A stretch of 64,000 nucleotides of DNA from Nitrospira sp. (GTDB lineage: Bacteria > Nitrospirota > Nitrospiria > Nitrospirales > Nitrospiraceae), in the NCBI GenBank assembly GCA_005239465.1, contig SPAW01000002.1, positions 40,868 to 104,867 on the forward strand. Direction: 5' to 3'. The position numbers and the translations under genes are program-made. This document shows positions 26,070 through 42,151 of this stretch, piece by piece. The notes beneath the pieces were generated by a model. That model did no database searches and was not told the DNA's origin. It saw only the letters and a list, made by a program, of their open reading frames with translations. Each line of letters begins with the position of its first letter. Position 1 is the first letter of the stretch.

Positions 26070-26316
26070 ACAGCAGCACCAGTGTTTGACCCGTCAGAGA
26101 GTTGCTCCAAGGTCTAAAGTCCTAGCCCAGGGTCACCGATCAGTGTTACCAATGTGAATGATATCTTGACTCCGAAATGATGAATAGGCGATAGAGTAAA
26201 CATATCCTTGTTCGTTCGATTGTGCTCCTTGTCTCTCAGTGGACAGGGGGAACGATCAATTTCGATAGAATATAGGCAGTAGGGTGACTGGTTCCTTGGA
26301 GGACCAGTCACAGTGC

Positions 26317-26370
26317 AAGCCAGCCAGTCGTGTTCCTCGCGGCAGGAAGTCGACGGCTGGCTTTTTGCTT
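26317..26370 (+). terminator. Intrinsic-terminator-like hairpin plus T tract inside the dabA leader (possible attenuator)
   Basis: AAGCCAGCC(A)GTCG..TTCCT-CGCGGC-AGGAA..CGACGGCTGGCTT followed by TTTTGCTT. It is preceded by a perfect 9-bp hairpin GTGACTGGT/ACCAGTCAC at 26284-26311 and lies 52 nt before the dabA ATG. Confidence 0.5.
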
Positions 26371-26421
26371 ATTGTGAGGAGTCCGCAGGCGGTATTTTCC
26401 AGCATGAGGAGAGGAACTGTG

Positions 26422-29394
26422 ATGCTCACTCAGACTGACGAGCCAGTCATCACCGATGAAGCCCTTCGGCAGCTTCACAAGGAAGTGTCCCTTGCCGCCG
26501 AAGTGATCGCACTGAACTGGCCCATACGCACTTTTATTTCACGCAGTCCCTTGGCTGGATTTGAACATCTGCCGTTCGGGGAAGCAGTCATGCGGGCGCG
26601 GCACCTGTTGGGCGGTGAGGGCTATCTGTCACTGACGGAGTATCGTGCCTGTTGGGCGCGGGGACGGATCGTCCGAGAGGATCTTGAGCAGGCCCTGAGA
26701 GAGATGGGGCCGGAAGCCATCGTAGGTGCTTCCATTCAAGCCGGCAGCAAGCGAATTCAGGCGGAGGAGGTGCTTCTCCTGCACCTGATCCACGGATTTG
26801 ATCCGATTGACGCTGCAACGTGTTCTTGGAGGGCTCTGAATGAGCATGCTCTCGGACGGTTTCAAGAAGCTCGACCGGCAGCGACGCAGGCACGTCTCTT
26901 GGCCGATTCGGACGGGGACCCGTCGGATTCCCATCTTCTCACCGCTCTCTGGGAAGCGATCAATGCGAAGCTGCCGTTGCCCTTAGGCGACGCACCTCGC
27001 AGTTCCACCTCCTTCCGGGAAGCTGATCGACTACCCCTTCAGACCGTCGTGGAGTTGGTTGACCACTTGACCGGCTCGACACTCCTGAAGACCCTCAACG
27101 ACGAAATGATCAAATGGCTGGTCGCCTTTACCGACGAAGGTCTCGGCGACTGGGCCATGCCCAGTCGCCACTCTGGGTTTTACGGCGCATGGCGCACTCT
27201 CGCTCGACATGACACCTCCGGTTGGTTTCTCGGGATAGAGAATTTCTCGAAGAAGCTGCAGGTCTTGCCCGATCGGGCAGAGGTTGCATTGATTCAATTG
27301 CTCCAGCGCCTTGACGTTCCAGGACAGCAGCGCATTGACTACTGCTCCAGACACCTGGCCCATCTCCACGGATGGAGTGGATACATTCGCTGGAAAGGTC
27401 AGCAGCCCGACCAGCACTACTCCATCGACCTGGTTCAATACCTTGCGGTGCGGCTCTTTTACGAAGTGGAGCTGGCCTCTTCGACCTGTTTGGCTTCGCT
27501 TGATGGGCAAGCCACGTTCCCCCAACTGCACGCCTCGCTGCTCAGACGCTCTGGTGACTCAGGTGGGCCCCACACGACGCGCGAGACCGATTCCGATTGT
27601 ACGTTAGGAGATGCATGGCGGCTCTTTCTATTGGCGCAGCAGCTTGGGCTCACCCCACGGGACATCCGTACGCTTCGCGGCGGCGACGCTCGAACTCTCC
27701 TAGGATGGCTCGACTCGATGCCAACCGAAACTCATCACCCCGTATGGCAGGAGGCCTACGAGCGTCGGTACCGCCGGGACCTGCTTAGCCGATTACATCA
27801 TCCTCTCTCCGATGAGACTTCTGTTCCCTTACAGAGCCATCCCCTGGCCCAGGCCGTCTTTTGCATCGATGTTCGTTCCGAACCATTCCGGCGGCATCTC
27901 GAAGCACAGGGCACATACGACACGATCGGCTTCGCCGGGTTCTTCGGGGTCCCGCTCTGTTATCGAGGCCTCCATCACGAAGAAGATCTGTCCCTCTGTC
28001 CGGTCTTGATCAAGCCCAAAGTCTCCGTCCGCGAGACACCGCGATCCGATCGACCCGTTGCATCCGAAGCCCACCTCCGTGGGAGCTACTGGCACGAAAT
28101 CGGCGAACACTTATTCCATCGGCTGAAGGCGAACCCGCTCAGCTCCTACATGCTGATCGATGTGACGGGCGCGCTGTTTGTTTTCGCCCTGGCCGGAAAG
28201 ACCGTCCTGCTATCCTTTTATAACCGTATGATGTCTCGGCTACGGCGGTGGTTCATCCCGACAGTGCCTACGATCATTCTTACCGAGAAGCAACGCCCGG
28301 CTTCCTCCGAGCTTCAGACTCAGCACAAAGAGGCGGGATTGCCCCACGGGTTCGCAGCGGACGAACAGGCTATGGTAGTTGAAAACTCGCTCCGATTGAT
28401 GGGGCTGACAAGAAACTTTGCCCGACTGGTTCTGCTATGCGGACACGGCAGTGCAACTGCGAACAATCCCTATGCTTCCGCCTATGACTGTGGAGCCTGC
28501 GGCGGAAACCACGGCGGTCCCAATGCCCGTGTCCTGGCCCGCCTGGCGAACGGTTCGGGGACTCGTGCCGCGCTGCGGGCTCACGGAATCGCTATCCCGG
28601 ATGACACCAGGTTCTTAGCAGCCGAACACAACACGACCACCGACCGGGTGACTTTCTTTGACCTGGAAGATCTGCCTTCGTCGTATCGCGAAGAATGGCA
28701 GCAGCTCGCGCGGGATCTCGAACGGGCTGGGACTGCAACTGCGGCGGAGCGGTGTGGACGGATTCCAGGTGCTTCCCGCTTTGCGACAACCGACCTCGCC
28801 ACCGGTCATGTCGGGGTTCGCAGCCTCGATTGGGCGCAGACCAGACCGGAATGGGGTCTCTCCGGCAATGCGGCCTTTATCATCGGGCGGCGGGCTTTGA
28901 CCCGGGACGTGACCCTGGACGGGCGAGTCTTCCTTCACAGTTACGATTCGGCGGCGGACGAGTCAGGCAAAGTCTTGGAGACGATCATGACCGCGCCACT
29001 GGTCGTGGCCGTGTGGATTAATCTTCAATATTATTTCTCGGCGGTCGATAGCTGGACCTATGGGAGCGGAAGCAAGGTTCTGCACAATGTCGTAGGCGGC
29101 ATCGGTGTGATGCTGGGCCGTCACAGCGATCTGCAGACCGGCCTCCCCCTGCAAAGCGTCAAGGACGGGGCTCGACTCTATCACGAGCCCATGCGGCTGC
29201 TCGCGATCATCGAGGCGACAACCGAGCGGCTGTCCCAGATCATCAGCGGTCATCAAATCTTGCAACAGTTTTTTGATCATCGATGGGTCCACCTGGTAGC
29301 CATGAATCCTGGGACCTGGGACCTGCAGGAATATCGACCGGGCGGCCAGTGGTGCACGGTGACGGTGCGGGCTTCTCGTGAGGAAGCGCAGTGA
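26422..29394 (+). CDS. dabA: DUF2309 / DabA-family protein (carbonic-anhydrase-like subunit of DAB/Mps inorganic-carbon pumps)
   Basis: ~990 aa. Family blocks include WPIRTFISRSPLAGFEHLPF, FCIDVRSEPFRRHLE, CGHGSATANNPYASAYDCGACGGNHG and LTRPEWGL-like RPEWGLSGNAAFIIG. ATG 26422 is preceded by AGGAGAGGA. The track N-extension covers the leader hairpins. Confidence 0.85.
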   Translation: MLTQTDEPVITDEALRQLHKEVSLAAEVIALNWPIRTFISRSPLAGFEHLPFGEAVMRARHLLGGEGYLSLTEYRACWARGRIVREDLEQALREMGPEAIVGASIQAGSKRIQAEEVLLLHLIHGFDPIDAATCSWRALNEHALGRFQEARPAATQARLLADSDGDPSDSHLLTALWEAINAKLPLPLGDAPRSSTSFREADRLPLQTVVELVDHLTGSTLLKTLNDEMIKWLVAFTDEGLGDWAMPSRHSGFYGAWRTLARHDTSGWFLGIENFSKKLQVLPDRAEVALIQLLQRLDVPGQQRIDYCSRHLAHLHGWSGYIRWKGQQPDQHYSIDLVQYLAVRLFYEVELASSTCLASLDGQATFPQLHASLLRRSGDSGGPHTTRETDSDCTLGDAWRLFLLAQQLGLTPRDIRTLRGGDARTLLGWLDSMPTETHHPVWQEAYERRYRRDLLSRLHHPLSDETSVPLQSHPLAQAVFCIDVRSEPFRRHLEAQGTYDTIGFAGFFGVPLCYRGLHHEEDLSLCPVLIKPKVSVRETPRSDRPVASEAHLRGSYWHEIGEHLFHRLKANPLSSYMLIDVTGALFVFALAGKTVLLSFYNRMMSRLRRWFIPTVPTIILTEKQRPASSELQTQHKEAGLPHGFAADEQAMVVENSLRLMGLTRNFARLVLLCGHGSATANNPYASAYDCGACGGNHGGPNARVLARLANGSGTRAALRAHGIAIPDDTRFLAAEHNTTTDRVTFFDLEDLPSSYREEWQQLARDLERAGTATAAERCGRIPGASRFATTDLATGHVGVRSLDWAQTRPEWGLSGNAAFIIGRRALTRDVTLDGRVFLHSYDSAADESGKVLETIMTAPLVVAVWINLQYYFSAVDSWTYGSGSKVLHNVVGGIGVMLGRHSDLQTGLPLQSVKDGARLYHEPMRLLAIIEATTERLSQIISGHQILQQFFDHRWVHLVAMNPGTWDLQEYRPGGQWCTVTVRASREEAQ

Positions 29395-29882
29395 CGAAGA
29401 TTCCTCGACTGCTCAAGAAGACAGTCGCCTATTGGATCATCTGGTTGTTCGTGGTGGGACAAATGACCCTGTACGTCGTCCTGCTTGGCATGCTCTGCTC
29501 GTTCATTGTTGCGTGGATTGATCTCCACCGCTCCCCCCCACCTGCTCGATCCTTTCCCTGGGTCAGGCTCTTTCTGTATGTGCCCTGGCTTGTCGTGCAG
29601 GTGGTGAAAAGTGGGCTACACATGACGCGTCTGATTCTCCACCCCAAATTGCCGATCGACCCACAGATCATTCCCTACAAACCCCGGCTTCGGGATCCTG
29701 CCGGTCTTGTGCTGTTGGGGAATTCGATTACCTTAACGCCTGGCACGATCACGGTGGAGATTGCCCCCGATGAACTGCTGGTCCATGCCATCGATTCCCG
29801 TTCAGGAGAGGATATCGTGAACGGAACGATGGAATGCCGGGTTGCGCAGATCTTCGAACGCGACCTTCACGGAGGGCGATGA
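29391..29882 (+). CDS. mrpE: Mrp/Mnh antiporter subunit E-like (MbhA-like)
   Basis: NSITLTPGTITVEIAPDELLVHAID is the MnhE C-terminal signature. The GTG start overlaps the dabA stop (GTGA). Confidence 0.8.
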   Translation: MTKIPRLLKKTVAYWIIWLFVVGQMTLYVVLLGMLCSFIVAWIDLHRSPPPARSFPWVRLFLYVPWLVVQVVKSGLHMTRLILHPKLPIDPQIIPYKPRLRDPAGLVLLGNSITLTPGTITVEIAPDELLVHAIDSRSGEDIVNGTMECRVAQIFERDLHGGR

Positions 29883-30145
29883 GCGAGTTTTTATACAGCA
29901 CGATGACTGTTCTCGCGATACTCATCCTCGTGTATCTATACCGGGTGATTGCGGGCCCGACGGTCTTCGACCGGTTGCTCGGCCTTAACGGTATCTCCAC
30001 GAAGGCGATCCTCTTAGTGGTGGTTATCGGTACGATCTATGGGCGCGTCGACATGTTCGTGGACATCTCGACGGGCTATGCGTTGCTGAACTTGGTGAGC
30101 GCCCTGGCCGTCACGAAATACTTTGAACATCGAAGGTCTGTCTAG
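29879..30145 (+). CDS. mrpF: Mrp subunit F-like (MbhB-like)
   Basis: YRVIAGPTVFDRLLGLNGISTK motif. ATGA overlap with mrpE. Confidence 0.8.
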   Translation: MSEFLYSTMTVLAILILVYLYRVIAGPTVFDRLLGLNGISTKAILLVVVIGTIYGRVDMFVDISTGYALLNLVSALAVTKYFEHRRSV

Positions 30146-30442
30146 ATGACTATCCTGGTCTGGGCTTGTGTTGCCGTGGGGCTGTTCTTCTTGGCCGTCG
30201 CAGCCGTAGGAATGCTCCGACTGCCCGATGTGTATACTCGCTCGCACGCGCTCGGCGTGACCGATACCTTGGGTGCGTCGCTGGTCCTGATCGGCCTTGC
30301 GTTTCACCAAGGGTTCACGCTCACGGCAGGAAGAATTCTGGTCATCCTGTTGTTGCTCTTGTTCCTCAACCCGGTCATTTCCCATGCGACGGTCCGAGCC
30401 GCGCTTCGCGTCGGTCTTAAGCCATGGACGAAGGAGCCTTGA
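30146..30442 (+). CDS. mrpG: Mrp subunit G-like (MbhC-like)
   Basis: GMLRLPDVYTRSHALGVTDTLG motif. The start abuts the mrpF stop. Confidence 0.8.
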   Translation: MTILVWACVAVGLFFLAVAAVGMLRLPDVYTRSHALGVTDTLGASLVLIGLAFHQGFTLTAGRILVILLLLLFLNPVISHATVRAALRVGLKPWTKEP

Positions 30443-30972
30443 TGCAGATCTGGGGCGATCTGCCGCTACTCATCCTGCTCTTGGTCACTGCCCTTGGTGC
30501 CGTTATAGTGAGGGACCTGATCGGCGCGGTGCTTATTCTTGGGTCCTACAGCTTCTTTCTCGCCCTGTGCTGGGCCTGGATGGGATCTCCCGATGTGGCC
30601 TTTACCGAAGCAGTGGTGGGATCCGGCATGTCGACCGTGCTGTTCTTGTTTGCCCTGTTTCAAACGGTCCCCCAGGAGGATCCGTCGAGCCATCGAGATA
30701 CGCCCTGGTTTGTCGCGCTCGGGCTCGGGGTCTTAGGCCTGCTCTTGCTGTATGGCGCAATCGACCTGCCACGCTTCGGCGATATCGCAGCACCAGCCAA
30801 CGCGTATCTCTCTCCAACCTATATACAACAGAGCCTTGAGCAGATGAACACGCCGAATATCGTGACCGCAATCCTGATGGACTACCGAAGCCTCGATACG
30901 CTGATCGAGACCGCGGTGGTCTTCACGGCCGGCGTGGCCTGCGCGCTTCTCTTGCGGAGGCACGATTCATGA
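30442..30972 (+). CDS. DUF4040 + MnhB-N domain protein (MrpA C-terminal / MbhD-E equivalent)
   Basis: GSPDVAFTEAVVGSGMSTVLFL matches DUF4040 and NIVTAILMDYRSLDTLIETAVVFTAG matches MnhB. AAGGAG lies 6 nt before ATG 30442, which shares one nt with the mrpG stop. Confidence 0.75.
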   Translation: MQIWGDLPLLILLLVTALGAVIVRDLIGAVLILGSYSFFLALCWAWMGSPDVAFTEAVVGSGMSTVLFLFALFQTVPQEDPSSHRDTPWFVALGLGVLGLLLLYGAIDLPRFGDIAAPANAYLSPTYIQQSLEQMNTPNIVTAILMDYRSLDTLIETAVVFTAGVACALLLRRHDS

Positions 30973-31415
30973 TCGCGGCCCACGACAGTCTGATTGTACA
31001 CATGATCACCCGAGTGCTTCTGCCCGTCATCCAGCTTTACGGGATCTATGTCCTGTTCTTCGGTCAATACGGCCCGGGAGGGGGATTCGTGGGCGGAGTC
31101 ATCTTTGGAGCAAGCTTAATCCTCACACTGCTCGTCTTCGGGGCCAGGTCGAACGAGAACTATCTCGCTAAGCGGGCACTCCGTGCCGACGGACTTGGCC
31201 TCATCATCTATGCCGGCATTGGTGGGCTTTGCATGATCTTCGCGGGACAGTTCCTCAATTATTCCGCCGTCCCGCTACCAGGGTTCGACCCGCCAGCAAC
31301 GCGATCGCTAGGGATTCTTGGCACCATGATCGGGGTGGCGGTCGACATCGCTGTGACGTCAATCTCGATCGTTGACAGTCTCTCTTTTGCCGACGAGGAG
31401 GGGCGCCTTGTTTGA
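30969..31415 (+). CDS. mrpB: Mrp subunit B-like (MbhF-like)
   Basis: QYGPGGGFVGGVIFGASLIL motif and 4 TM segments. ATGA overlap upstream. Confidence 0.75.
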   Translation: MIAAHDSLIVHMITRVLLPVIQLYGIYVLFFGQYGPGGGFVGGVIFGASLILTLLVFGARSNENYLAKRALRADGLGLIIYAGIGGLCMIFAGQFLNYSAVPLPGFDPPATRSLGILGTMIGVAVDIAVTSISIVDSLSFADEEGRLV

Positions 31416-31773
31416 GAACCTTCTCTCTCCCAACTTCACGACCTTCATCACCCTGTTTATTTTTGGTCTGACGATCATGGTGACCCACCACAATCTCATC
31501 AAGAAGTTGATCGGCATGTACCTTGTCCAGACCAGCATCATTTTTTTCCTCGTGACCATCGGCGCCAAATCCGGCAGCACCGTGCCCATTCTCCTCTCGG
31601 CAGCAGGCCCGATCGAGCCCCATGTCTATGCGAATCCCCTTCCCCACGCCTTGGTGGTGACGGCGATTGTCGTTGGGGTCTCAACGTTGGGCGTCTCGCT
31701 CGGGCTCACCATCGCTATTTTTCGACGCTACGGCTCACTCGAAGAGGATGAAATCCTCAAGAGGTTGGAATGA
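31408..31773 (+). CDS. mrpC: Mrp subunit C-like (NuoK-fold, MbhG-like)
   Basis: FITLFIFGLTIMVTHHNLIKKLIGMYLVQTSIIFFLV...PHALVVTAIVVGVS. TTG 31408 is 5 nt after GAGGAGGGG. The track start at 31372 is also a TTG. Confidence 0.7.
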   Translation: MFENLLSPNFTTFITLFIFGLTIMVTHHNLIKKLIGMYLVQTSIIFFLVTIGAKSGSTVPILLSAAGPIEPHVYANPLPHALVVTAIVVGVSTLGVSLGLTIAIFRRYGSLEEDEILKRLE

Positions 31774-33248
31774 CTAGCCAGGCGGTGTGCTTGATATTCC
31801 TCCTGCCCTTTTCAGCCGCCGTCGCGATGCCGATGCTGGGAGCCTGGCGTCGCAGTTGGTGCCGGCCCTTAGCGCTCTCGGCTGTGGGGCTCATGGCGCT
31901 GTTTGCTTTTTCCGCCTGCTACGACGTTCTTACACAGGGTCCGGTTCGATACGCGCTGGGCGGGTGGGATCCGCCGGTCGGCATCGTCTTGGTCCTCGAT
32001 GGATTGAGCGGCCTCCTCGCGGTGGCCTTGAGTCTCGTGAGCCTAGCCTGCTTGTTCTTCGGTGGTCCTGCGCTGCCCAAGGATCTCGGCTCGAAGGTGG
32101 TACCGTACCACACGCTGGTTCTGCTGATGATTTCTGCCCTTGCCGGAGTCACGCTGAGCGGTGACCTATTCAACCTCTTCGTCTTTCTCGAAGTCAGTGC
32201 GCTTTGCGCCTATGCGCTGGTCGGGCTGAGCGGAGGCCGAGCCCTTATTGCCGCATTCCGGTACCTCATCCTGGGGACGATCGGCGCGTCGTTCTATCTC
32301 CTCGGAGTTGGATACTTCTACGCTGCCACCGGCACGCTCAATATGGAGGATTTTCTCAACCGGTTGCCCGACGCGCTTCATTCTAAGGCCGTGCTGACCG
32401 GCCTGACTTTTATCCTTCTCGGATTGGCCATCAAGGCTGCGATGGTGCCTTTTCATGGATGGTTACCGGATGCCTACGCTCATGCGCCGGACGCGGTGGT
32501 GCCATTACTGGCCTCGTTGGTTACCAAGGTGTCACTGTACGCCATGACCAGGATTACATTTTGGGTGCTGGGTGCCAGCACCCTCACCTATGAGTTCCCC
32601 CTCCTGTTTTTACTCAGTATGGGCGGTACAGTTGGGGCGGTTGTCGGGGCCTTTTTAGCTCTCACTCAGCAGGATCTCCGCCGCATGTTCGCGTACGGCG
32701 GGATTTCCCACGTCGGCTTGATCGTGATCGGCATCACGGCCGGCAACCAAACTGGCTTTTCTGGCGGCGTGTTTTATTTGGCGAATGATGCAGTCATGCA
32801 AGCGACGCTCTTCTTCATCGCTGGGATCATCATGTATCGGTGTGGGGCAAGGGACCTGAATCAGTTGGGCCATCTGGGGTCGCAGATGCCCTGGACCTCG
32901 GCTGCGCTGATCGTGACGGCGCTCTCGATGATCGGCATCCCGCCGACCGGGGGTTTCTTTGGAAAGTGGTACATGGTCTTGGGTGCATTGGAGGCGAAGA
33001 ATTATCTGGCGGTCGCCGCAATCCTGTCGTCCACGCTCCTCACGCTGGCCTACTTTGTCCGCATTATCGAGCGAATGTTCGGCGAGAAGCCGTCTAATGC
33101 ATCGGCCGCCCAGCTCGCATCTGAGGAACCGGTGGAAATGCGTGTCAGCATGGGAGCGCTGGCGGCCAGTATTATTCTTCTCGGTCTATTCAGCGATCGG
33201 ATCGTGGGATTGATTCTCCGGTCGGCGGTACCGCCGGGGCTTGGATAG
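31770..33248 (+). CDS. mrpD: Mrp subunit D-like antiporter-type subunit (NuoN/M fold, MbhH-like)
   Basis: 492-aa polytopic protein with the proton-antiporter core (FLEVSALCAYALVG...AIKAAMVPFHGWLPDAYAHAP...AYGGISHVG). ATGA overlap with mrpC. Confidence 0.8.
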   Translation: MTSQAVCLIFLLPFSAAVAMPMLGAWRRSWCRPLALSAVGLMALFAFSACYDVLTQGPVRYALGGWDPPVGIVLVLDGLSGLLAVALSLVSLACLFFGGPALPKDLGSKVVPYHTLVLLMISALAGVTLSGDLFNLFVFLEVSALCAYALVGLSGGRALIAAFRYLILGTIGASFYLLGVGYFYAATGTLNMEDFLNRLPDALHSKAVLTGLTFILLGLAIKAAMVPFHGWLPDAYAHAPDAVVPLLASLVTKVSLYAMTRITFWVLGASTLTYEFPLLFLLSMGGTVGAVVGAFLALTQQDLRRMFAYGGISHVGLIVIGITAGNQTGFSGGVFYLANDAVMQATLFFIAGIIMYRCGARDLNQLGHLGSQMPWTSAALIVTALSMIGIPPTGGFFGKWYMVLGALEAKNYLAVAAILSSTLLTLAYFVRIIERMFGEKPSNASAAQLASEEPVEMRVSMGALAASIILLGLFSDRIVGLILRSAVPPGLG

Positions 33249-33295: not shown

Positions 33296-35467
33296 ATGTG
33301 GATCGCGCTCATACCGGCAAGTCCAGTCATCGCCTTCCTGGTAATTGCACTAGGAGGCCGTTGGCTTGGTGAGCGAAGCCACCTTATCGGCATCGTCGCC
33401 GTGACGACCTCCTTCGCCCTCAGCATCCTCGCCACCATTCTCGTCGTCACAAGCGGCCCGATCGCTTTGCCCTTGTACAAGTTGATCCAGTCCGGCCCAT
33501 TGACTGTCGAAATCGGCCTCTACGCAGACGGGTTTGCCATGGCCTTGCTCCTGCTCGTGAGCGGTGTCAGCGCCATTGTCCATGTCTTCTCGTCACGGTA
33601 CATGCAAGGCGATCCTCGATATGTTCGTTTCTTCGCCGTCATCGCGCTGTTCACCTCCGCCATGCTTCTGCTGGTCCTGAGCGCCAACCTGATGATGCTG
33701 TACATGTGTTGGGAAGTAATGGGCCTCTGTTCTTACCTACTGATCTCCCACTGGGCCGAGCGTCGTTCAGCCTGTCAGGCGGCGACCAAGGCCTATCTCG
33801 TCAACGCGGTAGCCGACCTCGGGCTCGGGCTCGGGGTGATCCTAACCTGGTCGACCTTTGACACGCTCGACATTCAAACGATTCTGTCCCGCGCGCCGGA
33901 GGTCGTGCCCAAGACAGTCAATGTCCTCTCGCTCGTTGGCCTGGAATGGTCCGTTCCGGTGCTGTTCCTGATTTCGTCCCTCCTGTTCGCCGGAGCCGTT
34001 GGCAAGTCGGCACAGTTTCCGCTCCACGTGTGGTTACCCTTCGCGATGGAGGCCCCCACTCCCGTTTCTGCTTTGATCCATGCAGCGACGATGGTCAACG
34101 CTGGCGTCTATCTGTTGGTTCGTCTCGCGCCGCTGTATGTCCTTTCCCCCGGGGCAATGGTGCTGGTCGCACTGACCGGAGGACTCACCGCGCTGTTCGC
34201 CGGGATCGTCGGCCTGACGCAATGCGACATCAAACGGATCCTCGCCTACTCGACGATCAGCCAGCTTGGCTTCATGATCATGGCCTGCGGCGTCGGCGCC
34301 TTCCGCGCTGCGACGTTCCATCTCATTTCCCATGGAGCACTCAAAGCCTATCTCTTCCTTTCGACGGGAAGTGCAGTCGCGGCAGTCATGCGGACCAAGT
34401 CCCATCACCCTGCCGTACCTAGGTCGGGCCCATGCAGCGACGCATGGCCTCTCTATTGCGGGAGCTTTCTGCTCGCCCTGCTGCCGTCGGTTTTCCTGTT
34501 CTCGGCGCCGTTCTCCGCGCTTTGGACCTCAACAGGCCAGGCACCGGCCGCTGGCCTATATTTAATGCTCGCCTCTGCTGCCTCGTTCTTTGCAGCCTAT
34601 TATCTCTCTCGGCTGGTACTCGAAACATTCCAGAAACCCATCCCGCTCGTGTGGAAGCAGGCGTTGCCCGCCTCGTTGGCTCGCCCTCGGTTTTTTACAG
34701 CCTCTCTGATCCTTGGGTTCATTCCTCTTGTAGTGGGACTCGCGGTTCTTTTGGCCTTCCTCTGGACGGCCTTTACTCACATCCTCGTCCCGGGTGGTGT
34801 GCAAAGGCTTCCGGCATTGGATAACCTGATTCGAAGTGCCTTCGACCTCGAGCACTTGATCATGCCTTTGCTCGTCGCAACAGCAGGCTGGGGTTTGGCT
34901 CTTACTGTGCATGGACGACCCTGGCCGAGGCCATCCTGGGTCACCGCTGCCCTTGACCGTCTGTACGTGTATTTCATGAACCGTGGCTATATTGACGAAT
35001 TCTACGAGGTCTTCGTCGTGCGGCCCACGCTGCGCGCCGCCCGATGGGTATGGATCTCCGGCGATGTTATGGTGATCGACGGAATGTACCGGGCTGTGGC
35101 CACCTTTTCACTGGCCTTGTCTCGGTGGCTGTGGCAGGTAGTCGATGTACGCGGGATCGATCGTGGGGTAGTTGGCTTCGGGACCTCGTCCTTGACCCTT
35201 GCCCGCTGGTTGTGGCGGGTGATCGACGTGCGGGGTATCGACCGGGCCGTGACCGACCTCGGGGCTTCGTCATTCACGACTGCCCGATGGCTGTGGAAGG
35301 TCGACGTGCGGGGAATCGAGAGGGTTGCAGAAGAAGTCGGCCGCCAAAGCGACGCCACTGGACAAAGGCTGGCGAGACTCGAGCCCAGGACGCTTCAACA
35401 CCATATTCTTGTCGTGATCACCTGGTTGGTGCTCGGACTGACGCTCTTCTATTGGTTCGCTCCGTGA
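33296..35467 (+). CDS. NuoL/MrpA/DabB-like antiporter-type subunit with extended, internally repeated C-terminal region
   Basis: FSSRYMQGDPRYVRFFAVIALFTSAMLLLV...MLYMCWEVMGLCSYLLISHW...GKSAQFPLHVWLPFAMEAPTPVSALIHAATMVNAGVYL is the NuoL core. The C-terminus has YIDEFYEVFVVRP followed by the repeated RWLW..DVRGIDR units and a final TM. Confidence 0.85.
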   Translation: MWIALIPASPVIAFLVIALGGRWLGERSHLIGIVAVTTSFALSILATILVVTSGPIALPLYKLIQSGPLTVEIGLYADGFAMALLLLVSGVSAIVHVFSSRYMQGDPRYVRFFAVIALFTSAMLLLVLSANLMMLYMCWEVMGLCSYLLISHWAERRSACQAATKAYLVNAVADLGLGLGVILTWSTFDTLDIQTILSRAPEVVPKTVNVLSLVGLEWSVPVLFLISSLLFAGAVGKSAQFPLHVWLPFAMEAPTPVSALIHAATMVNAGVYLLVRLAPLYVLSPGAMVLVALTGGLTALFAGIVGLTQCDIKRILAYSTISQLGFMIMACGVGAFRAATFHLISHGALKAYLFLSTGSAVAAVMRTKSHHPAVPRSGPCSDAWPLYCGSFLLALLPSVFLFSAPFSALWTSTGQAPAAGLYLMLASAASFFAAYYLSRLVLETFQKPIPLVWKQALPASLARPRFFTASLILGFIPLVVGLAVLLAFLWTAFTHILVPGGVQRLPALDNLIRSAFDLEHLIMPLLVATAGWGLALTVHGRPWPRPSWVTAALDRLYVYFMNRGYIDEFYEVFVVRPTLRAARWVWISGDVMVIDGMYRAVATFSLALSRWLWQVVDVRGIDRGVVGFGTSSLTLARWLWRVIDVRGIDRAVTDLGASSFTTARWLWKVDVRGIERVAEEVGRQSDATGQRLARLEPRTLQHHILVVITWLVLGLTLFYWFAP
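35042..35340 (+). repeat. In-frame 81-bp (27-codon) tandem repeat, about 3.5 units, inside the NuoL-like gene
   Basis: Units start at 35042, 35123, 35204 and 35285. They read RWVWISGDVMVIDGMYRAVATFSLALS / RWLWQVVDVRGIDRGVVGFGTSSLTLA / RWLWRVIDVRGIDRAVTDLGASSFTTA / RWLWKV-DVRGIERVAEEV.... Confidence 0.9.
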
Positions 35468-35486: not shown

Positions 35487-36989
35487 ATGGTGACGTTCCT
35501 GACCGACCACCTCTTGAGTTGGATCATTGCTGCACCCTTGGCGGGGCTAGCTCTTGTCGCGTGGCTCCGTGACGAAGAGTTGATCAAACGGGTCAGCCTC
35601 GCCTCGACGCTCGTCTCGTTCCTCCTGTCCTTGGTAGTGTGGGCTCGGTTCGACCATGGGAGGGAAGGCATGCAGTTTGTTGAACGAGCCGAGTGGATGC
35701 CGACGTTCAATATTCAATACGCTGTGGGCGTCGACGGCATCAGCCTGCCCTTGTTGCTGTTGACCACGCTCCTCCCGCCGCTGTGCGTGCTCACCTCCTG
35801 GAACGCCATCGAGACGAAGGTCAAGGCCTTCATGATGCTGATCCTTCTGGTGGAATCCGCCATGATCGTGGTGTTCACCGCGCTCGACTTGTTCCTTTTC
35901 TTTATGCTCTGGGAAGTCACCATGATTCCCATGTACTTCATGATCGTGCTGTGGGGCGGTCCGCAACGGGTTCCCGCGGCGGTCAAGTTCGTGCTCTTCA
36001 GTTTGACCGGAAGTTTGCTGCTCCTGGTCGCAATTCTCGGACTGTACTTGGAAGGTGGCAAGACCTTCGACATGATCGCACTGTCGCAGGTGAGTTATTC
36101 CGTCGATACGCAATTCTGGATCTTCCTCGCCCTTTTCCTGGCCTTCGCCATAAAGATGCCGATGCTTCCGTTCCACACATGGCTTCCGGAGGCCCACTCC
36201 GAGGCCCCCACGGCGGGGAGCGTCATCCTTGCCGGTATTTTGCTGAAAATGGGCGGGTACGGCTTCCTGCGTCTCTGCCTGCCTCTCTTCCCCCAGGCGT
36301 CCGCGGACTTTGCTACTTTCATCCTCTGGCTCTCGGTGGCAGCAATTCTGTACGGCGGGTACAACGCGCTCGCTCAGGAAGACATCAAGAAAATGGTGGC
36401 CTATTCGTCCATTTCGCACATGGGCTTCGTGACACTCGGCATCTTCGTCTTCAACACTCAGGGGATCCATGGAGCCATCTTGCAGATGTTCAATCACGGG
36501 ATCACCACCGGAGCGCTCTTCCTCATCGTCGGCCAACTTTACGATCGGACCCATAGCCGCGAGATCAACGACTATGGCGGGCTACACAAGCTGATGCCAC
36601 GATTCACGACGTTTCTCTGCATCTTCTCTGTGGCCTCCTTCGGCCTGCCGGGCACCTGTAGTTTCATCGGTGAGTTTTTGGTGCTGGTAGGAACCTCTTC
36701 GCGCAGCTATGTGATGGTGCTGTTGGCGATGGGCGGCATAGTCCTGGCTGCGTCCTACATGCTGTGGATGTTGCAGCGCGTGGCGCTTGGACCGGTCACT
36801 ACCCGCTTCGCCTCCAGCCTGCCTGATTTGACGATGCGGGAAATCGTGGTGCTCGTTCCGCTCGCGATTCTGGTCTTTGCGATCGGGCTCTACCCTGGTC
36901 CGCTGATCCACGCCATGGATGCAACCGTGACAGGCCTCATCCAGGGTTTCGATGCCGGTCCGCCGCTGAAGACCACGGCTCACTTCTAA
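35487..36989 (+). CDS. NuoM-like antiporter-type subunit
   Basis: The N-terminus ...WMPTFNIQYAVGVDGISLPLLLLTTLL..., then FFMLWEVTMIPMYFMI and AIKMPMLPFHTWLPEAHSEAPTAGSVILAGILLKMGGYG, are classic NuoM blocks. AGGAG precedes the ATG. Confidence 0.85.
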   Translation: MVTFLTDHLLSWIIAAPLAGLALVAWLRDEELIKRVSLASTLVSFLLSLVVWARFDHGREGMQFVERAEWMPTFNIQYAVGVDGISLPLLLLTTLLPPLCVLTSWNAIETKVKAFMMLILLVESAMIVVFTALDLFLFFMLWEVTMIPMYFMIVLWGGPQRVPAAVKFVLFSLTGSLLLLVAILGLYLEGGKTFDMIALSQVSYSVDTQFWIFLALFLAFAIKMPMLPFHTWLPEAHSEAPTAGSVILAGILLKMGGYGFLRLCLPLFPQASADFATFILWLSVAAILYGGYNALAQEDIKKMVAYSSISHMGFVTLGIFVFNTQGIHGAILQMFNHGITTGALFLIVGQLYDRTHSREINDYGGLHKLMPRFTTFLCIFSVASFGLPGTCSFIGEFLVLVGTSSRSYVMVLLAMGGIVLAASYMLWMLQRVALGPVTTRFASSLPDLTMREIVVLVPLAILVFAIGLYPGPLIHAMDATVTGLIQGFDAGPPLKTTAHF

Positions 36990-37018: not shown

Positions 37019-38365
37019 ATGGGCGACGCGTCACCTCACATCATCTTCGGCTGGTCGCCGCTCATCCTCTCGAGCTTCATCATGGTCGTGTCCTACGCGG
37101 TGATCGTCTCCGAGCGATTCAACCGCGCGATCGTCGCGCTTCTAGGCGCGACGCTGGCCGTGGGGCTTGGTGTGCTCACTCAGGAGCAAGCGATCCGTGG
37201 CGTAGATTTCAACACCATCGGGCTCCTGACCGGCATGATGGTGTTGGTCGGTGTCACGAAGGAAAGCGGAATCTTCCAGTTCCTGGCGATCAAATCGGCG
37301 AAAATGGCCAAGGGCAGCCCATGGGGCATCCTGGTTATGCTTTCAATCATTACTGCAGTCCTGTCGGCCTTCCTCGACAATGTCACGACCGTCCTCCTGG
37401 TGGCCCCCGTCACGCTGCTGATCGCCGACGAGCTGCAGATCAATCCCTATCCGCTACTGTTTGCCGAGATCAATGCGTCGAATTCCGGAGGCACGGCAAC
37501 CCTGATCGGGGATCCCCCGAACATCATGATCGGGTCGGCCACGCATCTGACGTTCAATGATTTCATCCTGCACCTTAGCCCACTGAGCCTTGTCGTGTTT
37601 ACGGTGACCCTGGTCCCGCTCTGGTTCATCTATGGCCGGCACTTGAGCGTCTCGCCGGAGGCCAGGGAGCGGGTGATGGCTTTCAATGAGTATGCGGCGA
37701 TCCGGGATGTCAGACTCCTGAAGCAATCGCTGACGGTGTTCGGCCTCGTGATCGCGGGATTCGTGCTCGCACACCCTCTGCACCTTGAACCAGCGACGAT
37801 CGCCATGGGCGGAGCCGCGCTGCTCCTCTTGCTCGTCACGCTGGGTGCTGGTCAGGAAGAGGCCAGTCATAAATTGCACGAGTTCTTCACGCGAGTCGAG
37901 TGGGTGACCATCTTCTTCTTCATAGGATTGTTCATTATTGTCGCTGGCGTCGAGCACGCGGGTCTGCTAAAGCTGATGGCCGAATGGACCTTGAGCTTCA
38001 CCGGCGGTGATTTCGCCGTAACCACCATGGTCGTGCTCTGGACCTCGGCCATTCTCTCAGCGATCGTAGATAACATCCCGTTCGTGGCCACGATGATCCC
38101 GCTGATCAAAGACATGCTGCCAGTGTTCGAAGCCGCTGGCGTTCCACCGTACCAACTTGAAGGGCTCTGGTGGGCCCTGGCGGCGGGAGCCTGTTTTGGT
38201 GGAAATGGCTCGCTGATCGGCGCGTCCGCGAATCTGATCGTGGCCGGCATCGCAGAACGGAACGGTGTCCCGTTTCGCTTCCTCCCGTTCCTCAAGGTCG
38301 CTTTTCCGCTGATGCTGCTCCAAGTCGGCATCAGCGCCGTCTATGTCTGGTGGCGGTACCTATGA
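37019..38365 (+). CDS. ArsB/NhaD-superfamily (CitMHS-like) ion permease
   Basis: Polytopic protein. SAFLDNVTTVLLVAPVT...GGTATLIGDPPNIMIG...SAIVDNIPFVATMIPL...GGNGSLIGASANL is the duplicated permease motif. Confidence 0.75.
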   Translation: MGDASPHIIFGWSPLILSSFIMVVSYAVIVSERFNRAIVALLGATLAVGLGVLTQEQAIRGVDFNTIGLLTGMMVLVGVTKESGIFQFLAIKSAKMAKGSPWGILVMLSIITAVLSAFLDNVTTVLLVAPVTLLIADELQINPYPLLFAEINASNSGGTATLIGDPPNIMIGSATHLTFNDFILHLSPLSLVVFTVTLVPLWFIYGRHLSVSPEARERVMAFNEYAAIRDVRLLKQSLTVFGLVIAGFVLAHPLHLEPATIAMGGAALLLLLVTLGAGQEEASHKLHEFFTRVEWVTIFFFIGLFIIVAGVEHAGLLKLMAEWTLSFTGGDFAVTTMVVLWTSAILSAIVDNIPFVATMIPLIKDMLPVFEAAGVPPYQLEGLWWALAAGACFGGNGSLIGASANLIVAGIAERNGVPFRFLPFLKVAFPLMLLQVGISAVYVWWRYL

Positions 38366-38808
38366 AAGCGCGCGACATCATGACGACGGACGTGATCACG
38401 CTCCCGCCGGATTGTTTGATCGGCGACCTAGTCCGCAAATTAGCCGAGATGAAGCTGCAGGCGTTTCCTGTGGTGGACGCGAATGGGAACCTGCTCGGCA
38501 TCGTTAATATCTGGCGGCTGCTCCGCCACGTACTGCCGCCCTACATAGTGTCGGGCGACTTGGTTGATGTCCGGTTCGCGCCGGATCTCAACCAGCTTCA
38601 TGAGCGGCTGGCTTCCATGCGGAACCAGCCGGTGAGTGCTATCATGAATCGGAAACCGCCGACCGTGCGGCCTGACCATTCAGTCCTGGAGTGCGCTGCG
38701 CTCATGCTCAATACGCCGAAGACGGTTTATCTCCTGCCCGTTGTGGATGAGTCAGGGCGCTTCCTAGGGATCATCGCTCCCTTGGACCTGATCAAGGAGA
38801 TAGCCTAA
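38362..38808 (+). CDS. CBS-domain pair protein
   Basis: MKARDIMTTDVITLPPD...AFPVVDANGNLLGIV and SAIMNRKPPTVRPD...LLPVVDESGRFLGII form two CBS motifs. ATGA overlap with the permease gene. Confidence 0.8.
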   Translation: MKARDIMTTDVITLPPDCLIGDLVRKLAEMKLQAFPVVDANGNLLGIVNIWRLLRHVLPPYIVSGDLVDVRFAPDLNQLHERLASMRNQPVSAIMNRKPPTVRPDHSVLECAALMLNTPKTVYLLPVVDESGRFLGIIAPLDLIKEIA

Positions 38809-38810
38809 TC

Positions 38811-39170
38811 ATGCAGCTCTTCTACTGCCTCCACTTCAAGAACCTCCAGGGGGATATCTATGGAGGGCTGGTCGACGCAGTGGTCGCCCTGCCCCTGGCA
38901 TTAGCCTTCGGTGTCGCCTCAGGAGCCGGGGCTATCGTGGAGCTGTACGGCGCGATTTTCGTGGGATTTTTCGCCCCGCTGTTCGGTGGGACGCTGACTC
39001 AGGTCTTCGGCTAGACAGGACCCATGAAGGTCGTCATGGCCGGGATTATCGCCCAGTTCGGCCAGGAACCGGCCTTAGCCTTCACTGCCGTGATCTTGGG
39101 CGGAGGATTACAAATCTTGCTGGGGGTGTCGGTGGCTTCGGGCGGTACATCACGTAGTTGGCGATGTTGA
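38811..39170 (+). pseudogene. SulP-family transporter remnant (N-terminal ~110 codons, in-frame TAG, rest deleted)
   Basis: DIYGGLVDAVVALPLALAFGVASGAGAIVELYGAIFVGFFAPLFGGTLTQVFG*TGPMKVVMAGIIAQFGQEPALAFTAVILGGGLQILLGV. The SulP N-terminal blocks continue in frame across TAG 39012-39014, and similarity then ends. Confidence 0.7.
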
Positions 39171-39390
39171 TTTCTTTTCAGACTCACCCCGATTCCTTCC
39201 CTCTACACTGGGCCTTGCCAATCAGCAATCATGTCTATTGTTCGTCCACCTCTGCCTTATCTTTTATTCAGTCGTGGGAGGGCTCTAATTCGGAGTTTCA
39301 GTGTCTCTGATGTGGCGATCGCGACAGCTCCGATCTGGAAAGCCGTTCCCTACGAGAGTCCGTGCTGGGAAGCCTGTCGTGGTTGAAGAA

Positions 39391-39744
39391 TTACTGGCCG
39401 GATGGTTGAACTGCGCCAAGGTCTTGATCGAGGGTAAACACCATAATCCGCTCTCCGATTTCCGTGTCAATGTCCGTGAACAGTCCCGTTACCTTCACAC
39501 CTGTAATTCTGGCGATCTCGTTGCATAAACTGTCCCGGCCTTGCGCAATCAAGTTCTGGCGCATGCGTTTGACCATCTCAATACCGTCCGCGTTCTTGGC
39601 CAATTGACGTTCGGCATGGGTGAGGACCCCTTTCAGCCGGACGACCACCATGTCGCGGATGATTAAGGCTCGCACATCCGTCGGTCCGCGCCCCATAAAG
39701 TCCTGCTCAAACCTGATGATCGCCTGTCTGATTGCGTTGTACAT
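39391..39744 (-). CDS. DUF2294-like small protein
   Basis: IIRFEQDFMGRGPTDVRALIIRDMVVVRLKGVLTHAERQLA...LIAQGRDSLCNEIARITGVKV.. is a pattern I associate with DUF2294, from memory. Confidence 0.5.
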   Translation of the reverse strand: MYNAIRQAIIRFEQDFMGRGPTDVRALIIRDMVVVRLKGVLTHAERQLAKNADGIEMVKRMRQNLIAQGRDSLCNEIARITGVKVTGLFTDIDTEIGERIMVFTLDQDLGAVQPSGQ

Positions 39745-40411
39745 GTCTCCCTACCTCACCGGGTGATGACCGCCAGACTGTGCCCTTCCACTTGGTCATG
39801 GTCAGACAAGGTAGATTATAGTAACCACGAGAGAGACAAGGCAATGATAAGAATGAGGCTTCGCGCATTATCGGCGGGGATTAGGGGTTTTTAACGCACT
39901 CCTAATCCTCTTCTTATCTCCAATTGTTACGATCTCGTATCTCCGCTCTGAGAACACTTGACAACCGGCATGATCCACAAGAAGGGTGGAACTATCAGAC
40001 AGTTGGTTCGAAAAACTGCAGGCCCTGTTGTCACCATCGAGGCGGTGGGATCTCTCTTGGTCTGGGCAGGGCAATCGTTGACAGCATCCCCTACATCCAG
40101 CCTGACTCAGGCGAGCGTGAACCCGGTCGTCCTTTCGTTGACACCAGCTTCAAGCGGTTTCGCAGAGATCGCCACGCCGTGAGGCCAGCGGTCGTCAACT
40201 CATTGAAATGTTCTTCTGTCTCTAGACCGAAATTCTTTGCGTTTGACTCTGGAATCCTGCTACATCTTGAATTGGAAGACAACGCCGCCAGGCTCCATTG
40301 GTAAAACGGTCGGGCGGAACCGGTCGCTGGGAACTCCGGCGGGTGTAAACCCAACTCCACCATAGGGCGCGTAAGGTTGTCGGCTTCCTGTTCAGCGGCC
40401 GACAATAATAC

Positions 40412-40460
40412 AAGCCAGTGTGGCGCATACCTCGACGAGGTGCGCCCGCTGGCTTTTTTT
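40412..40460 (+). terminator. Intrinsic-terminator-like hairpin plus T7 tract 18 nt upstream of the sulP start (possible attenuator/expression platform)
   Basis: AAGCCAG-TGT-GGCGCA (13-nt loop) TGCGCC-CG-CTGGCTT followed by TTTTTTT. It is preceded by an 8-bp hairpin TTGTCGGC/GCCGACAA at 40376-40405. Confidence 0.5.
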
Positions 40461-40477
40461 ATGGAGAAAAACGTCTG

Positions 40478-42151
40478 ATGAACAGATCCACATCGTTGGG
40501 CGTCCCAGCAGGCAAGAACATACCCGCGGGAACATTTGACGGGTTGAAGCGGTACTCGCGCTACGATTTGGTCTCCGGCTTCTTGGTGTTTTTGATTGCG
40601 CTTCCGCTCTGCCTTGGCATCTCACTGGCCTGTGGCTACCCCGCGATTGCCGGTATTTTTACGGCGATTATCGGGGGACTCGTCGGTGCGACGTTGAGCA
40701 ATTCAGAGCTCACCATTAAGGGACCGGCGGCCGGTCTTATCGTGATCGCGATCGGGTGCGTTGTTGAGTTCGGATTTACGGGTGGGACAGATCCCGCGGC
40801 CGATTACCAAGCCTATCGACTGGCCCTGGGAGTCGGCGTAGCTGCGGGCATCATCCAGATCCTCTTTGGCCTTCTGCGAGCAGGTATCCTAGCTGAGTCT
40901 GCCCCGAGCTCGGTCATTCACGGCATGCTCGCAGCCATCGGTATCATCATTATTGCCAAGCAATTTCCGGTCATGCTGGGACTCAGTGCCTCAGGCGAAC
41001 CTTTGGAGCTACTGAAGAACATTCCGTCCTTCATCATTGACATGAACCCGGAAATCGGCGCGATCGGGTTGCTTAGTTTCGCCATTATGGTCGCTTATCC
41101 CTTTATTAAAAGTAACGTGCTCAAGAAGATCCCAGCGCCTCTCGTCGCCCTCTTGATCGCCGTGCCATTGGGGTTGTATTTCGGTCTCGACCATCCTCAT
41201 GGCTATTCGTTCAATAATCACGAGTATCAAGTCGGGCCGAACTTTCTTGTCAATGTACCGCTGAACATGTTCGACGCTATAGCCTTTCCCGATTTCTCTG
41301 GGCTGCTCACACTGACCGGCATCAAGTATGTCATCCTGTTTGCTCTGATTGGCAGCCTGGAATCGCTGCTGAGCGCCAAGGCTGTTGATACCATTGATCC
41401 CTGGAAGCGCAAAACCAATTTTGATCACGATCTGACGGCGATCGGGATCGGCAATACGGTGGCAGCCTGCGTCGGCGGTCTACCGATGATTTCTGAAATT
41501 GTCCGCAGTAAGGCCAATATCGACAACGGCGCCCATACCCGCTTTTCCAACCTCTACCATGGACTCTTCTTGCTCGTGTCCGTGGCGCTCGTGCCTGGAC
41601 TGATCAACAAAATTCCCTTGACCGCGCTCGCCGCCATGTTGGTCTACACAGGATTTCGCCTGGCGTCTCCCGCTGTGTTTCTGCATGTCTACCACGTGGG
41701 AAAAGAGCAATTGTTGATCTTCCTCTCGACCATCATCGCGATACTCGCCACTGATCTGTTGATCGGGATCGTAATCGGGATAGTGGTAGAAATACTGTCG
41801 CACCTCGTGAACGGGGCGCCTCTCCGTTCTCTCGTCCGCCTTCACTATAGGCCGTGCCACGTGAGCGATCGGACAACGCTTCTTTCCGTAAAAGAAGCGG
41901 CTGTGTTTACGACCTGGATCCCGCTACGCAGGCGGATCCAGGATCTGGCACTGCAGCATGATGTGGAGCTCGATCTTGCAGATACTCGTTTTGTCGATCA
42001 TACCGTGATGGCGCGACTTCATGAATTGCAAGCAGACCTGGCCTCGCAGAATCGCACACTGACGATCTCAGGACTTGATCAGCATCGCCCCTTCTCAGAG
42101 GATGTGGCTGCCGCTCGTAAAAAGAAACTGGCATCGACCACTCCGGCCTGA
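40478..42151 (+). CDS. SulP-family inorganic anion transporter with C-terminal STAS-like domain
   Basis: YSRYDLVSGFLVFLIALPLCLGISLACGYPAIAGIFTAIIGGLVGA..., SLESLLSAKAVD and PMISEIVRSKANIDNGA. The C-terminal ~110 aa are STAS-like. Confidence 0.85.
   Translation: MNRSTSLGVPAGKNIPAGTFDGLKRYSRYDLVSGFLVFLIALPLCLGISLACGYPAIAGIFTAIIGGLVGATLSNSELTIKGPAAGLIVIAIGCVVEFGFTGGTDPAADYQAYRLALGVGVAAGIIQILFGLLRAGILAESAPSSVIHGMLAAIGIIIIAKQFPVMLGLSASGEPLELLKNIPSFIIDMNPEIGAIGLLSFAIMVAYPFIKSNVLKKIPAPLVALLIAVPLGLYFGLDHPHGYSFNNHEYQVGPNFLVNVPLNMFDAIAFPDFSGLLTLTGIKYVILFALIGSLESLLSAKAVDTIDPWKRKTNFDHDLTAIGIGNTVAACVGGLPMISEIVRSKANIDNGAHTRFSNLYHGLFLLVSVALVPGLINKIPLTALAAMLVYTGFRLASPAVFLHVYHVGKEQLLIFLSTIIAILATDLLIGIVIGIVVEILSHLVNGAPLRSLVRLHYRPCHVSDRTTLLSVKEAAVFTTWIPLRRRIQDLALQHDVELDLADTRFVDHTVMARLHELQADLASQNRTLTISGLDQHRPFSEDVAAARKKKLASTTPA

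Follow-up and report, generated by a model that had tools for sequence, protein, structure and literature searches.

Introduction

Ever since structures of complex-I-type enzymes first appeared, it has been a matter of debate whether their lateral helix (HL) works as a piston, as a rigid clamp or as a loose strap. According to PMC7419157, HL of Mrp antiporters and complex I runs on the cytoplasmic side between transmembrane (TM) helices TMH15 and TMH16 (TM15 and TM16 below), linking the TMH7 regions and bracing the complex. Here we describe an elongated HL encoded in a 64,000-nucleotide (nt) stretch of Nitrospira sp. DNA (GenBank assembly GCA_005239465.1, contig SPAW01000002.1, positions 40,868 to 104,867 of the forward strand; hereafter the window), where a NuoL-like antiporter-like subunit of 723 amino acids (aa) carries four tandem copies of a 27-residue unit near its C-terminus. 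The number of such units varies from two to six among relatives encoded in the same ten-gene cluster, which associates Mrp-type genes with dabA.

Extension of HL as such is not without precedent. PMC9040806, citing Chadwick et al. 2018, reports an insertion of ~26 aa in HL of the 2M-type NuoL of Nitrospira and of MrpD2/NuoL of ‘Candidatus Manganitrophaceae’, a report to which an earlier, sequence-only reading of the window had correctly referred. The 2M-type NuoL resembles our case in its extended HL, in belonging to the same phylum and in being read as a longer clamp. It differs in having one insertion and in its gene context, a nuo operon containing a second nuoM, compared with one to five extra 27-aa units and a DabA-Mrp cluster in the family described here; the window protein has three extra units (80 aa) instead of the single insertion of ~26 aa. 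Its gene lies among DabA and Mrp-type genes, along with a single NuoM-like and a single MrpD-like gene, and since there is neither a nuo operon nor a second nuoM, we place the protein outside the 2M-type NuoL class.

The canonical HL of NuoL/Nqo12/ND5/NdhF1 (6hum_F, 7z7s_L, 3rko_L) belongs to the same fold with the same TM15-HL-TM16 topology. It crosses two partner antiporter-like subunits, the same partner number as encoded in the window cluster. Yet the canonical subunits have one unit (tail of ~73 aa) and the window family two to six (tails of 105–215 aa), and the closing LQ(T/S)G motif of the canonical HL is replaced by EPRTLQHH in the window protein. With Mrp antiporters (MrpA HL; 6z16, 7qru, 7d3u) the cluster shares homologues of MnhB/C/D/E/F/G: MnhE, MrpF, MnhG, MnhB, MnhC/NuoK and MrpD are present along with MrpA, which, however, is split into the NuoL-like protein and a separate MbhD/E-like protein, and an additional NuoM-like gene and a DabA gene are present. 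No repeat array in the MrpA HL is described in the accessible part of the Mrp structure paper (PMC7419157).

In the CO2-hydrating DAB/DAC complexes (DabAB, DabABC; 9rd0), a DabA with Zn motif is likewise encoded with a NuoL-like PF00361 subunit. By analogy, these complexes and the cyanobacterial NDH-1MS (CupA on NdhF3) may share with our locus the concept of a vectorial carbonic anhydrase placed on an antiporter-like subunit. The window cluster nevertheless comprises ten genes versus two or three in DAB/DAC, its PF00361 partner does not adjoin dabA, and the 723-aa protein compares with ~550 aa for DabB. It is thus neither a two- nor a three-subunit system, the only kinds described in the parts of the DAB1/DAB2 structure papers that were searched. 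The Nitrospira locus has been recorded before as ‘group 3 Mrp plus nuoL/M-like genes’ adjacent to nhaB and bicA, and was taken for an adaptation to salt or alkali (PMC7784846, PMC12342949); a 2026 survey mentions one Nitrospira DabA without a membrane partner (PMC13147460). In the part of the literature covered, we found no description of a tandem multi-copy HL or of copy-number variation in it.

Results

Four Tandem Units in the HL Region of a NuoL-Like Subunit

The gene and the parts of the array, all on the + strand, are as follows (HMM, hidden Markov model):

33296–35467, +: NuoL/MrpA-N/NdhF-type antiporter-like subunit, 723 aa, which carries the repeat (PF00662 and PF00361, phmmer, Foldseek)
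34988–35026, +: anchor block YIDEFYEVFVVRP, aa 565–577; aligns with the YFDELYEAVFIK block of NdhF1 directly before the HL unit
35042–35122, +: unit 1, RWVWISGDVMVIDGMYRAVATFSLALS, aa 583–609; diverged copy, homologous to the single NdhF1 unit; unit HMM 6.9 bits
35123–35203, +: unit 2, RWLWQVVDVRGIDRGVVGFGTSSLTLA, aa 610–636; unit HMM 47.8 bits
35204–35284, +: unit 3, RWLWRVIDVRGIDRAVTDLGASSFTTA, aa 637–663; unit HMM 44.4 bits
35285–35362, +: unit 4, RWLWKV-DVRGIERVAEEVGRQSDATG, aa 664–689; 26 codons; unit HMM 31.1 bits
35363–35404, +: conserved linker QRLARLEPRTLQHH, aa 690–703, leading into the last TM helix (alignment A1)
35405–35464, +: final TM helix (TM16 equivalent) ILVVITWLVLGLTLFYWFAP, from translation; AlphaFold2 (AF2) helix 699–721

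The 723-aa protein is an L-type (NuoL/NdhF/MrpA-like) antiporter-like subunit, as the sequence-only reading had it. Proton_antipo_N (PF00662, E 5e-14) is followed by Proton_antipo_M (PF00361, E 3e-56), and in phmmer the top solved relative was cyanobacterial NdhF1 (6hum_F, E 1e-84), next came plant Nad5 and bacterial NuoL, and DabB2 (9rd0_B) was a far weaker match (E 2e-35). An AF2 model with a predicted local distance difference test score (pLDDT) of 70–93 in its core matched NuoL/ND5/NdhF chains in Foldseek (E ~1e-26, template modeling score 0.55–0.65). The C-terminal layout TM15-HL-TM16 of L-type subunits is represented by the anchor block, a helical array and the final TM helix. Channel residues WE(140), GK(237)S and FH(342)LxxH(346)GxxK(350), i.e., the TM5 Glu, the TM7 Lys and the TM11 His/His/Lys, are invariant in our family alignment (A1). 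The TM12 Lys of NuoL/NdhF1 (SK(D/E); FWSKDE in NdhF1) is absent, the family having FSGPYExLW with a Glu instead. This TM12 motif (aa ~399–410, nt ~34490–34525) occurs in >90% of the family, with Glu as in NuoM and not the Lys of NuoL; the window protein itself reads FSAPFSALW and is uncharged here, and in the close relatives P0002–P0013 the Glu is exchanged for Ser, Arg or Ala, with the TM5/TM7/TM11 residues retained.

In the translation, the units begin at 35042, 35123, 35204 and 35285, exactly where they had been placed before. Likewise confirmed are the stronger divergence of unit 1 (6.9 bits versus 31–48 bits for units 2–4), the loss of one codon from the fourth unit, which occurs after RWLWKV, and the flanking landmarks, YIDEFYEVFVVRP upstream and ILVVITWLVLGLTLFYW in the TM helix downstream. 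The array end originally given, 35340, is wrong: it cuts 22 nt off unit 4, which has a degenerate C-terminal half and extends to 35362. In the linker that follows, R698 is invariant and E696, P697, Q701, H702 and H703 are kept in at least 90% of the family (alignment A1).

The array sits between TM15 and the final TM helix, the position of HL. The phmmer alignment to NdhF1 passes the anchor block and stops within unit 1 (ARWVWISGDVMVIDGMYR / ARQV-LEVDYNVVDGVVN), beyond which only ~39 residues of NdhF1 remain. We therefore conclude that canonical L-type subunits have one unit at the start of HL, where a single W..D..V(I/V)DG unit had been expected, and that the window protein has four. Judged from this homology, HL is lengthened by tandem duplication of a 27-residue unit carried once in canonical NuoL/NdhF, in agreement with the original proposal of a clamp extended by unit duplication.

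The copies in the window are old, and the repeat is real and non-random. A repeat search of the window returned blocks of 16–24 nt at spacings of 81, 81 and 78 nt with 75–88% identity, and in an autocorrelation analysis the identity at lag 81 was 0.50, versus 0.28 ± 0.035 at other in-frame lags (z = 6.4), a signal restricted to the final ~550 nt of the gene. Units 2 and 3 are 68% identical at the nt level, with 18 of 27 aa identical; the remaining unit pairs show 42–58% nt identity with third codon positions near saturation. Tandem Repeats Finder called no array here, its copies having diverged too far; the demonstration thus comes from seed-extension repeats, autocorrelation and the protein unit HMM. 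An assembly artefact, a concern raised at the outset, is unlikely for the window array, as its units share no more than 68% nt identity and the identical 723-aa protein was found on five contigs. The units as extra TM helices were also rejected, with three to five Arg/Asp per unit and a mean hydrophobicity of ~0–0.3.

Unit Number Varies among Homologues

Family members were gathered by searches using the repeat motif or the TM16 motif, by which single-unit members could be missed. The 120 best homologues, from Nitrospira/Nitrospirales and a few other metagenome-assembled genomes, show 47–83% identity and have lengths quantized at ~697, 724, 751 and 776 aa; the unit HMM counted three units in 34, four in 59, five in 25 and six in one of them. 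A C-terminal profile scan with one genome per species gave 80 loci, mostly from Nitrospirales, the other taxa being Planctomycetota/Pirellulales, Nitrospinota, Bryobacterales/Acidobacteriota, Binatia, Acidimicrobiia and Pseudomonadota (for example Pseudohaliea rubra DSM 19751). Over ~200 members (homologue set plus loci), tail length, counted from the Y.DE.Y anchor to the C-terminal end, follows 52 + 27n, with n = 2 in 3, n = 3 in 66, n = 4 in 92, n = 5 in 35 and n = 6 in 3 members; the NdhF1 tail of ~73 aa corresponds to n = 1. Fitch parsimony on a neighbor-joining tree of 181 distinct sequences, built from the 450 residues upstream of the anchor and containing a few mis-anchored or truncated tips, requires ~50 changes of n.

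Some of this variation is found between near-identical proteins. Within the P0004 cluster (90% identity; L001, contigs of ~106 kb), proteins of 776, 750 and 724 aa are the same outside the array and have six, five and four units, respectively, and the P0101 and P0022 clusters also vary in length (722 versus 695–696 aa and 751 versus 724 aa). In L001, nt identity between units 4 and 5 reaches 95%, and the extra unit of P0002 resembles a hybrid of adjacent units. The 4/5/6 polymorphism is either strain-level variation of the variable-number tandem repeat kind or short-read collapse/expansion of near-identical 78-nt units.

This rapid gain and loss, the strain-level variation and the recent duplications are what one would expect from a nearly neutral spacer, i.e., a recombination-prone linker in which extra copies are functionless and only the TM15-TM16 connection is required. 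Low AF2 confidence in the array (see below) would fit as well, and so would P0213 (683 aa) and P0169 (696 aa), which keep a tail of three-unit length (~132 aa) with largely degenerate units, a hint from their sequences that length may be retained without the motif in some lineages. What speaks against neutrality is the conservation of each unit. The consensus of 324 units is R-W-L-W-R-V-V-D-V-R-G-I-D-R-a-V-v-G-i-G-r-q-S-v-g-L-A, in which W2 and W4 are 100% and D8 is 99% conserved, internal units included, and G11, I12, D13, V16, G20 and S23 reach 74–84%. Conservation of W2, W4 and D8 at 99–100% despite saturated third codon positions indicates that each unit is under purifying selection. In addition, no cluster member with fewer than two units was seen in searches biased to the repeat and the TM16 motif. 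We thus regard the neutral spacer as unlikely.

Multiplied units also occur in NuoLs of canonical type. P0171 (768 aa; L086, 185–2491) has three units of 27-residue period (FDYTIIDGVVNG... / VDDGIIDFTVNF... / IDLPVVDGMVNG...) in a NuoK-NuoL-NuoM-NuoN-like context followed by an unrelated open reading frame (ORF), and P0151 and P0225, on short contigs, are canonical-type NuoLs with two units, P0151 being preceded by a P-II gene. With two to three units in these proteins, growth of HL by unit duplication is not restricted to the DabA-Mrp family. The three-unit canonical-type NuoL (P0171; L086 and L087) also has a His/Gly-rich insertion ahead of TM15. Six further candidates (P0164, P0210, P0211, P0234, P0240 and P0242), the many-stretch hits of a profile search covering 1.84 billion representatives, were rejected on inspection as unrelated ankyrin-like ‘AKWLW...IDI’ repeat proteins.

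The Gene Cluster Stays the Same

The NuoL-like gene is the ninth of ten in the string DabA-MnhE-MrpF-MnhG-MbhD/E-MnhB-NuoK-MrpD-NuoL-NuoM, the other members being:

26284–29394, +: DabA (PF10070, E 2e-260; 9rd0_A, E 4e-112), first gene of the string
29391–31773, +: MnhE, MrpF, MnhG, MbhD/E-like (NuoJ/MrpA-C-like), MnhB and NuoK/MnhC-like, six small Mrp-type genes
31770–33248, +: MrpD-like antiporter-like subunit, 492 aa (Pfam)
35487–36989, +: NuoM-like antiporter-like subunit, 500 aa (Pfam)

DabA retains the Zn-ligand motifs FCIDVRSE and GHGS..DCGAC when compared with 9rd0_A. Its longest frame from 26284 comprises 1036 aa and starts with GTG; called homologues have 991–1010 aa and the Pfam match begins at residue 69, and the true start probably lies downstream of 26284. 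No NuoA/H/J/N, C/D or E/F/G genes lie within the cluster. From this gene content, the cluster probably encodes an ion-gradient-coupled, CO2-hydrating membrane complex.

We matched the proteins of the window cluster against every ORF in the loci retrieved, 60 of which had sufficient flank. The same ten genes were present in all 60, from at least six phyla, with the PF00361 genes always downstream of dabA on the same strand and six small genes intervening. Three PF00361 antiporter-like genes were counted in 57 loci and two in the remaining three, which we attribute to contig ends or frameshifts; a fourth was found in none of the 60. Across these loci, n was 2 in one (plus L089), 3 in 27, 4 in 26, 5 in five and 6 in one.

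These numbers bear on the proposal from which the analysis set out, a strict molecular ruler in which each 27-residue unit spans one module of ~40 Å and unit number equals the number of modules crossed. In its favor, 27 residues at 1.5 Å indeed give ~40 Å; canonical NdhF1/NuoL spans two modules with ~54 HL residues, ~27 for each; the 26-aa HL insertion is tied to a second NuoM in PMC9040806; and every unit offers a small-residue face (G18/G20/S23/A27) and an invariant WxW/D, as expected for repeated equivalent contacts. Yet unit number and the number of antiporter-like genes are not correlated, since n ranges from 2 to 6 with the same ten-gene cluster in 60 of 60 loci, and the differences among near-identical proteins and the ~50 changes on the tree speak against a match between n and the modules spanned. 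As n varies threefold at a constant number of encoded modules, unit number is no ruler for module number. One extra unit per extra module is likewise unsupported, because the single canonical unit already crosses two modules and the cluster encodes two partners, the same number. The three-unit NuoL in a NuoK-L-M-N operon (P0171) and the HL insertions that Yu et al. (PMC9040806) report also for NuoLs whose complexes lack extra pumps point in the same direction, and on a continuous helix a 27-residue period turns each unit by 180 degrees relative to the one before. It had been suggested that the ruler would fail if homologues with the same cluster had a single unit; none was seen in the searches biased to the repeat and TM16 motifs, which speaks for the ruler to that extent, and what may survive of the idea is that HL must be longer by one extra unit or more. 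The strict ruler itself we hold to be very improbable, and the same low standing applies to the version in which the modules counted include extra physical copies of NuoM-like/MrpD-like subunits or the small subunits of the Mrp type.

Structural Features of the Array

In 18-residue windows along the array of the window protein, the hydrophobic moment was 0.4–0.5 from G-I-D-R to A-R-W-L-W of each unit and dropped to 0.07–0.13 at every W-L-W-x-V-V-D-V-R-G junction; on an ideal continuous helix, its direction alternated at ~190/320/190/10 degrees. The family-average hydrophobicity from position 9 to position 7 of the next unit (26 residues) peaked at exactly 100 degrees with an amplitude of 0.54. 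When three units were concatenated, the 100-degree term fell to 0.04, because 27 residues make up 7.5 turns and each unit is therefore rotated by 180 degrees against its neighbor. Hydrophobic residues occupy positions 9, 12, 16, 19, 23, 26, 3’ and 6’/7’, a spacing of 3–4 that is interrupted at D8-G11, and the mean net charge per unit is +1.0.

AF2, read at the level of secondary structure, assigned helices 566–615, 619–642, 648–694 and 699–721 to the window protein, and helices 565–614, 617–641, 659–667 and 675–721 with non-helical stretches at 642–658 and 668–674 to P0026. In both models the array is almost wholly helical, and most breaks start directly after WLWxV, at V-D-(V-R-G). In combination, the moment profile and the models suggest that short amphipathic helices follow one another in a chain, linked by conserved junctions, and do not form one coherent rod. 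Exchangeable apolipoproteins likewise have amphipathic helices of constant length in tandem, with short breaks between them and a location at a lipid interface; this likeness is by analogy only, with no homology, and in the window protein TM helices hold the array at either end.

As a straight rod, the region would measure (18 + 27n + 14) × 1.5 Å, that is, ~130, 170, 210, 250 and 290 Å for n = 2–6. By our own rough estimate, two antiporter modules together with the ~20 TM helices that belong to small subunits take up ~140 Å, which the rod would overshoot for n ≥ 4, the majority of the family, making a straight course implausible there.

Strong conservation of the unit sequence, and not just of length, leaves room for yet another function, namely a multivalent docking array, the units of which would bind a soluble or peripheral partner at the cytoplasmic face, with copy number tuning valency instead of reach. 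HL and DabA would share the cytoplasmic side; in the solved DAB1/DAB2 complexes, DabA touches the cytosolic NuoL-like face and wedges near TM12–15 beside the HL exit, and MpsC and CBS genes lie nearby, plus P-II in L001. Set against this, the solved DAB complexes function without such an array, canonical-type NuoLs without DabA also have two to three units, and an amphipathic, Trp-rich unit with a charge of +1 is more in keeping with a helix at the membrane interface than with a module for protein-protein contacts. Docking seems to us unlikely; candidate partners would be the ~110-kDa DabA, MpsC, regulators of the P-II/CBS kind or the other complex of a dimer.

Other Genes in the Window

Near the ten-gene string, at 37019–42151 and 39391–39744 (−), are MpsC (PF10057), CitMHS/NhaB-like, CBS and SulP/BicA-like genes. 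Further downstream on the + strand, adjacent ORFs at 43375–45131 match the restriction endonucleases NotI (PF12183, E 6e-49) and, weakly, HaeII (PF09554, E 1e-4), possibly a restriction-modification island downstream of the transporter genes. On the other side of the string, the window has ~7.4 kb between SelO (17397–18908, − strand) and DabA that are extra when compared with the syntenic locus L003, where DabA begins 650 bp after SelO. The gene content of this segment (19192–25483) is a small Fe-S/sulfur-transfer set: a PAS-domain sigma-54 activator (19658–21043), a ferredoxin (22417–22764), a Rieske protein (22801–23106), a stand-alone NuoB-like Oxidored_q6 protein (23130–23675), and HesB/IscA-like, rhodanese, DsrE-like and 2x[4Fe-4S] proteins.

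Discussion

We favor, at somewhat better than even odds, the notion that the array is the HL region turned into a segmented strap on the cytoplasmic side, one that tolerates changes in length but needs a minimum reach. Running between TM15 and TM16, it would probably lie along the cytoplasmic face of the membrane and fasten the distal L-type subunit to the remainder of the arm. Each unit would form its own amphipathic helix of ~24–26 residues, which begins at G-I-D-R and closes in the following R-W-L-W-x-V, where the two invariant Trp are placed, and the short conserved V-D-V-R-G break would join the units and reset the helical phase. Being segmented, such a strap could take a straight or a zigzag course, so that excess length might be absorbed on the membrane surface. 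Unequal recombination between units may then add or remove copies (2–6) with the partner subunits unchanged, and selection would act on a minimum reach (at least two units, usually three to four, versus one in canonical subunits) and on the interface-anchoring residues of each unit, not on exact length. Tolerance of this kind is in line with observations in E. coli, where most engineered HL insertions were tolerated (PMC3274701).

Several points weigh against the strap. In that same E. coli study, an insertion of 6–7 residues between NuoL and NuoM impaired pumping (PMC3274701), and HL geometry thus matters somewhere. The per-unit conservation of WxW and D could mean a specific partner for each unit, for which a slack strap offers no explanation. 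The array has a pLDDT of only 31–50 in both AF2 models, the TM cores of which were confident, and this makes the breaks and the course of the strap tentative. Short-read assembly error could have contributed to the 4/5/6 polymorphism, which involves 78-nt units of 95% identity, and a collection based on the repeat and TM16 motifs may have skipped single-unit members.

Unit number might also mirror real differences in architecture that are invisible in gene content, the array being the modular, length-adjustable strap of an unrecognized DabA-Mrp CO2-hydrating machine of ~10 subunits; such differences may, for example, consist in extra copies of the M- or D-like module or in a strap that reaches the second protomer of a dimer. 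We consider this a rather improbable option. If it were true, HL unit counts would be readable as an architectural code across complex-I-related enzymes.

For the debate on HL, the family amounts to a natural experiment: the same ten genes are combined with a strap of two to six units, some of the proteins being otherwise identical, a span of ~160 Å if helical. Provided that all variants are functional, the exact length of HL would not be mechanistically critical in the DabA-Mrp complex. For the organisms themselves, the genes known in Nitrospira as ‘extra nuoL/nuoM next to Mrp’ always follow dabA. This linkage looks unrecognized and may explain the ‘orphan’ Nitrospira DabA; going by gene content, it suggests a large Mrp-based, CO2-hydrating complex that would serve inorganic-carbon uptake in nitrite oxidizers and several other phyla.

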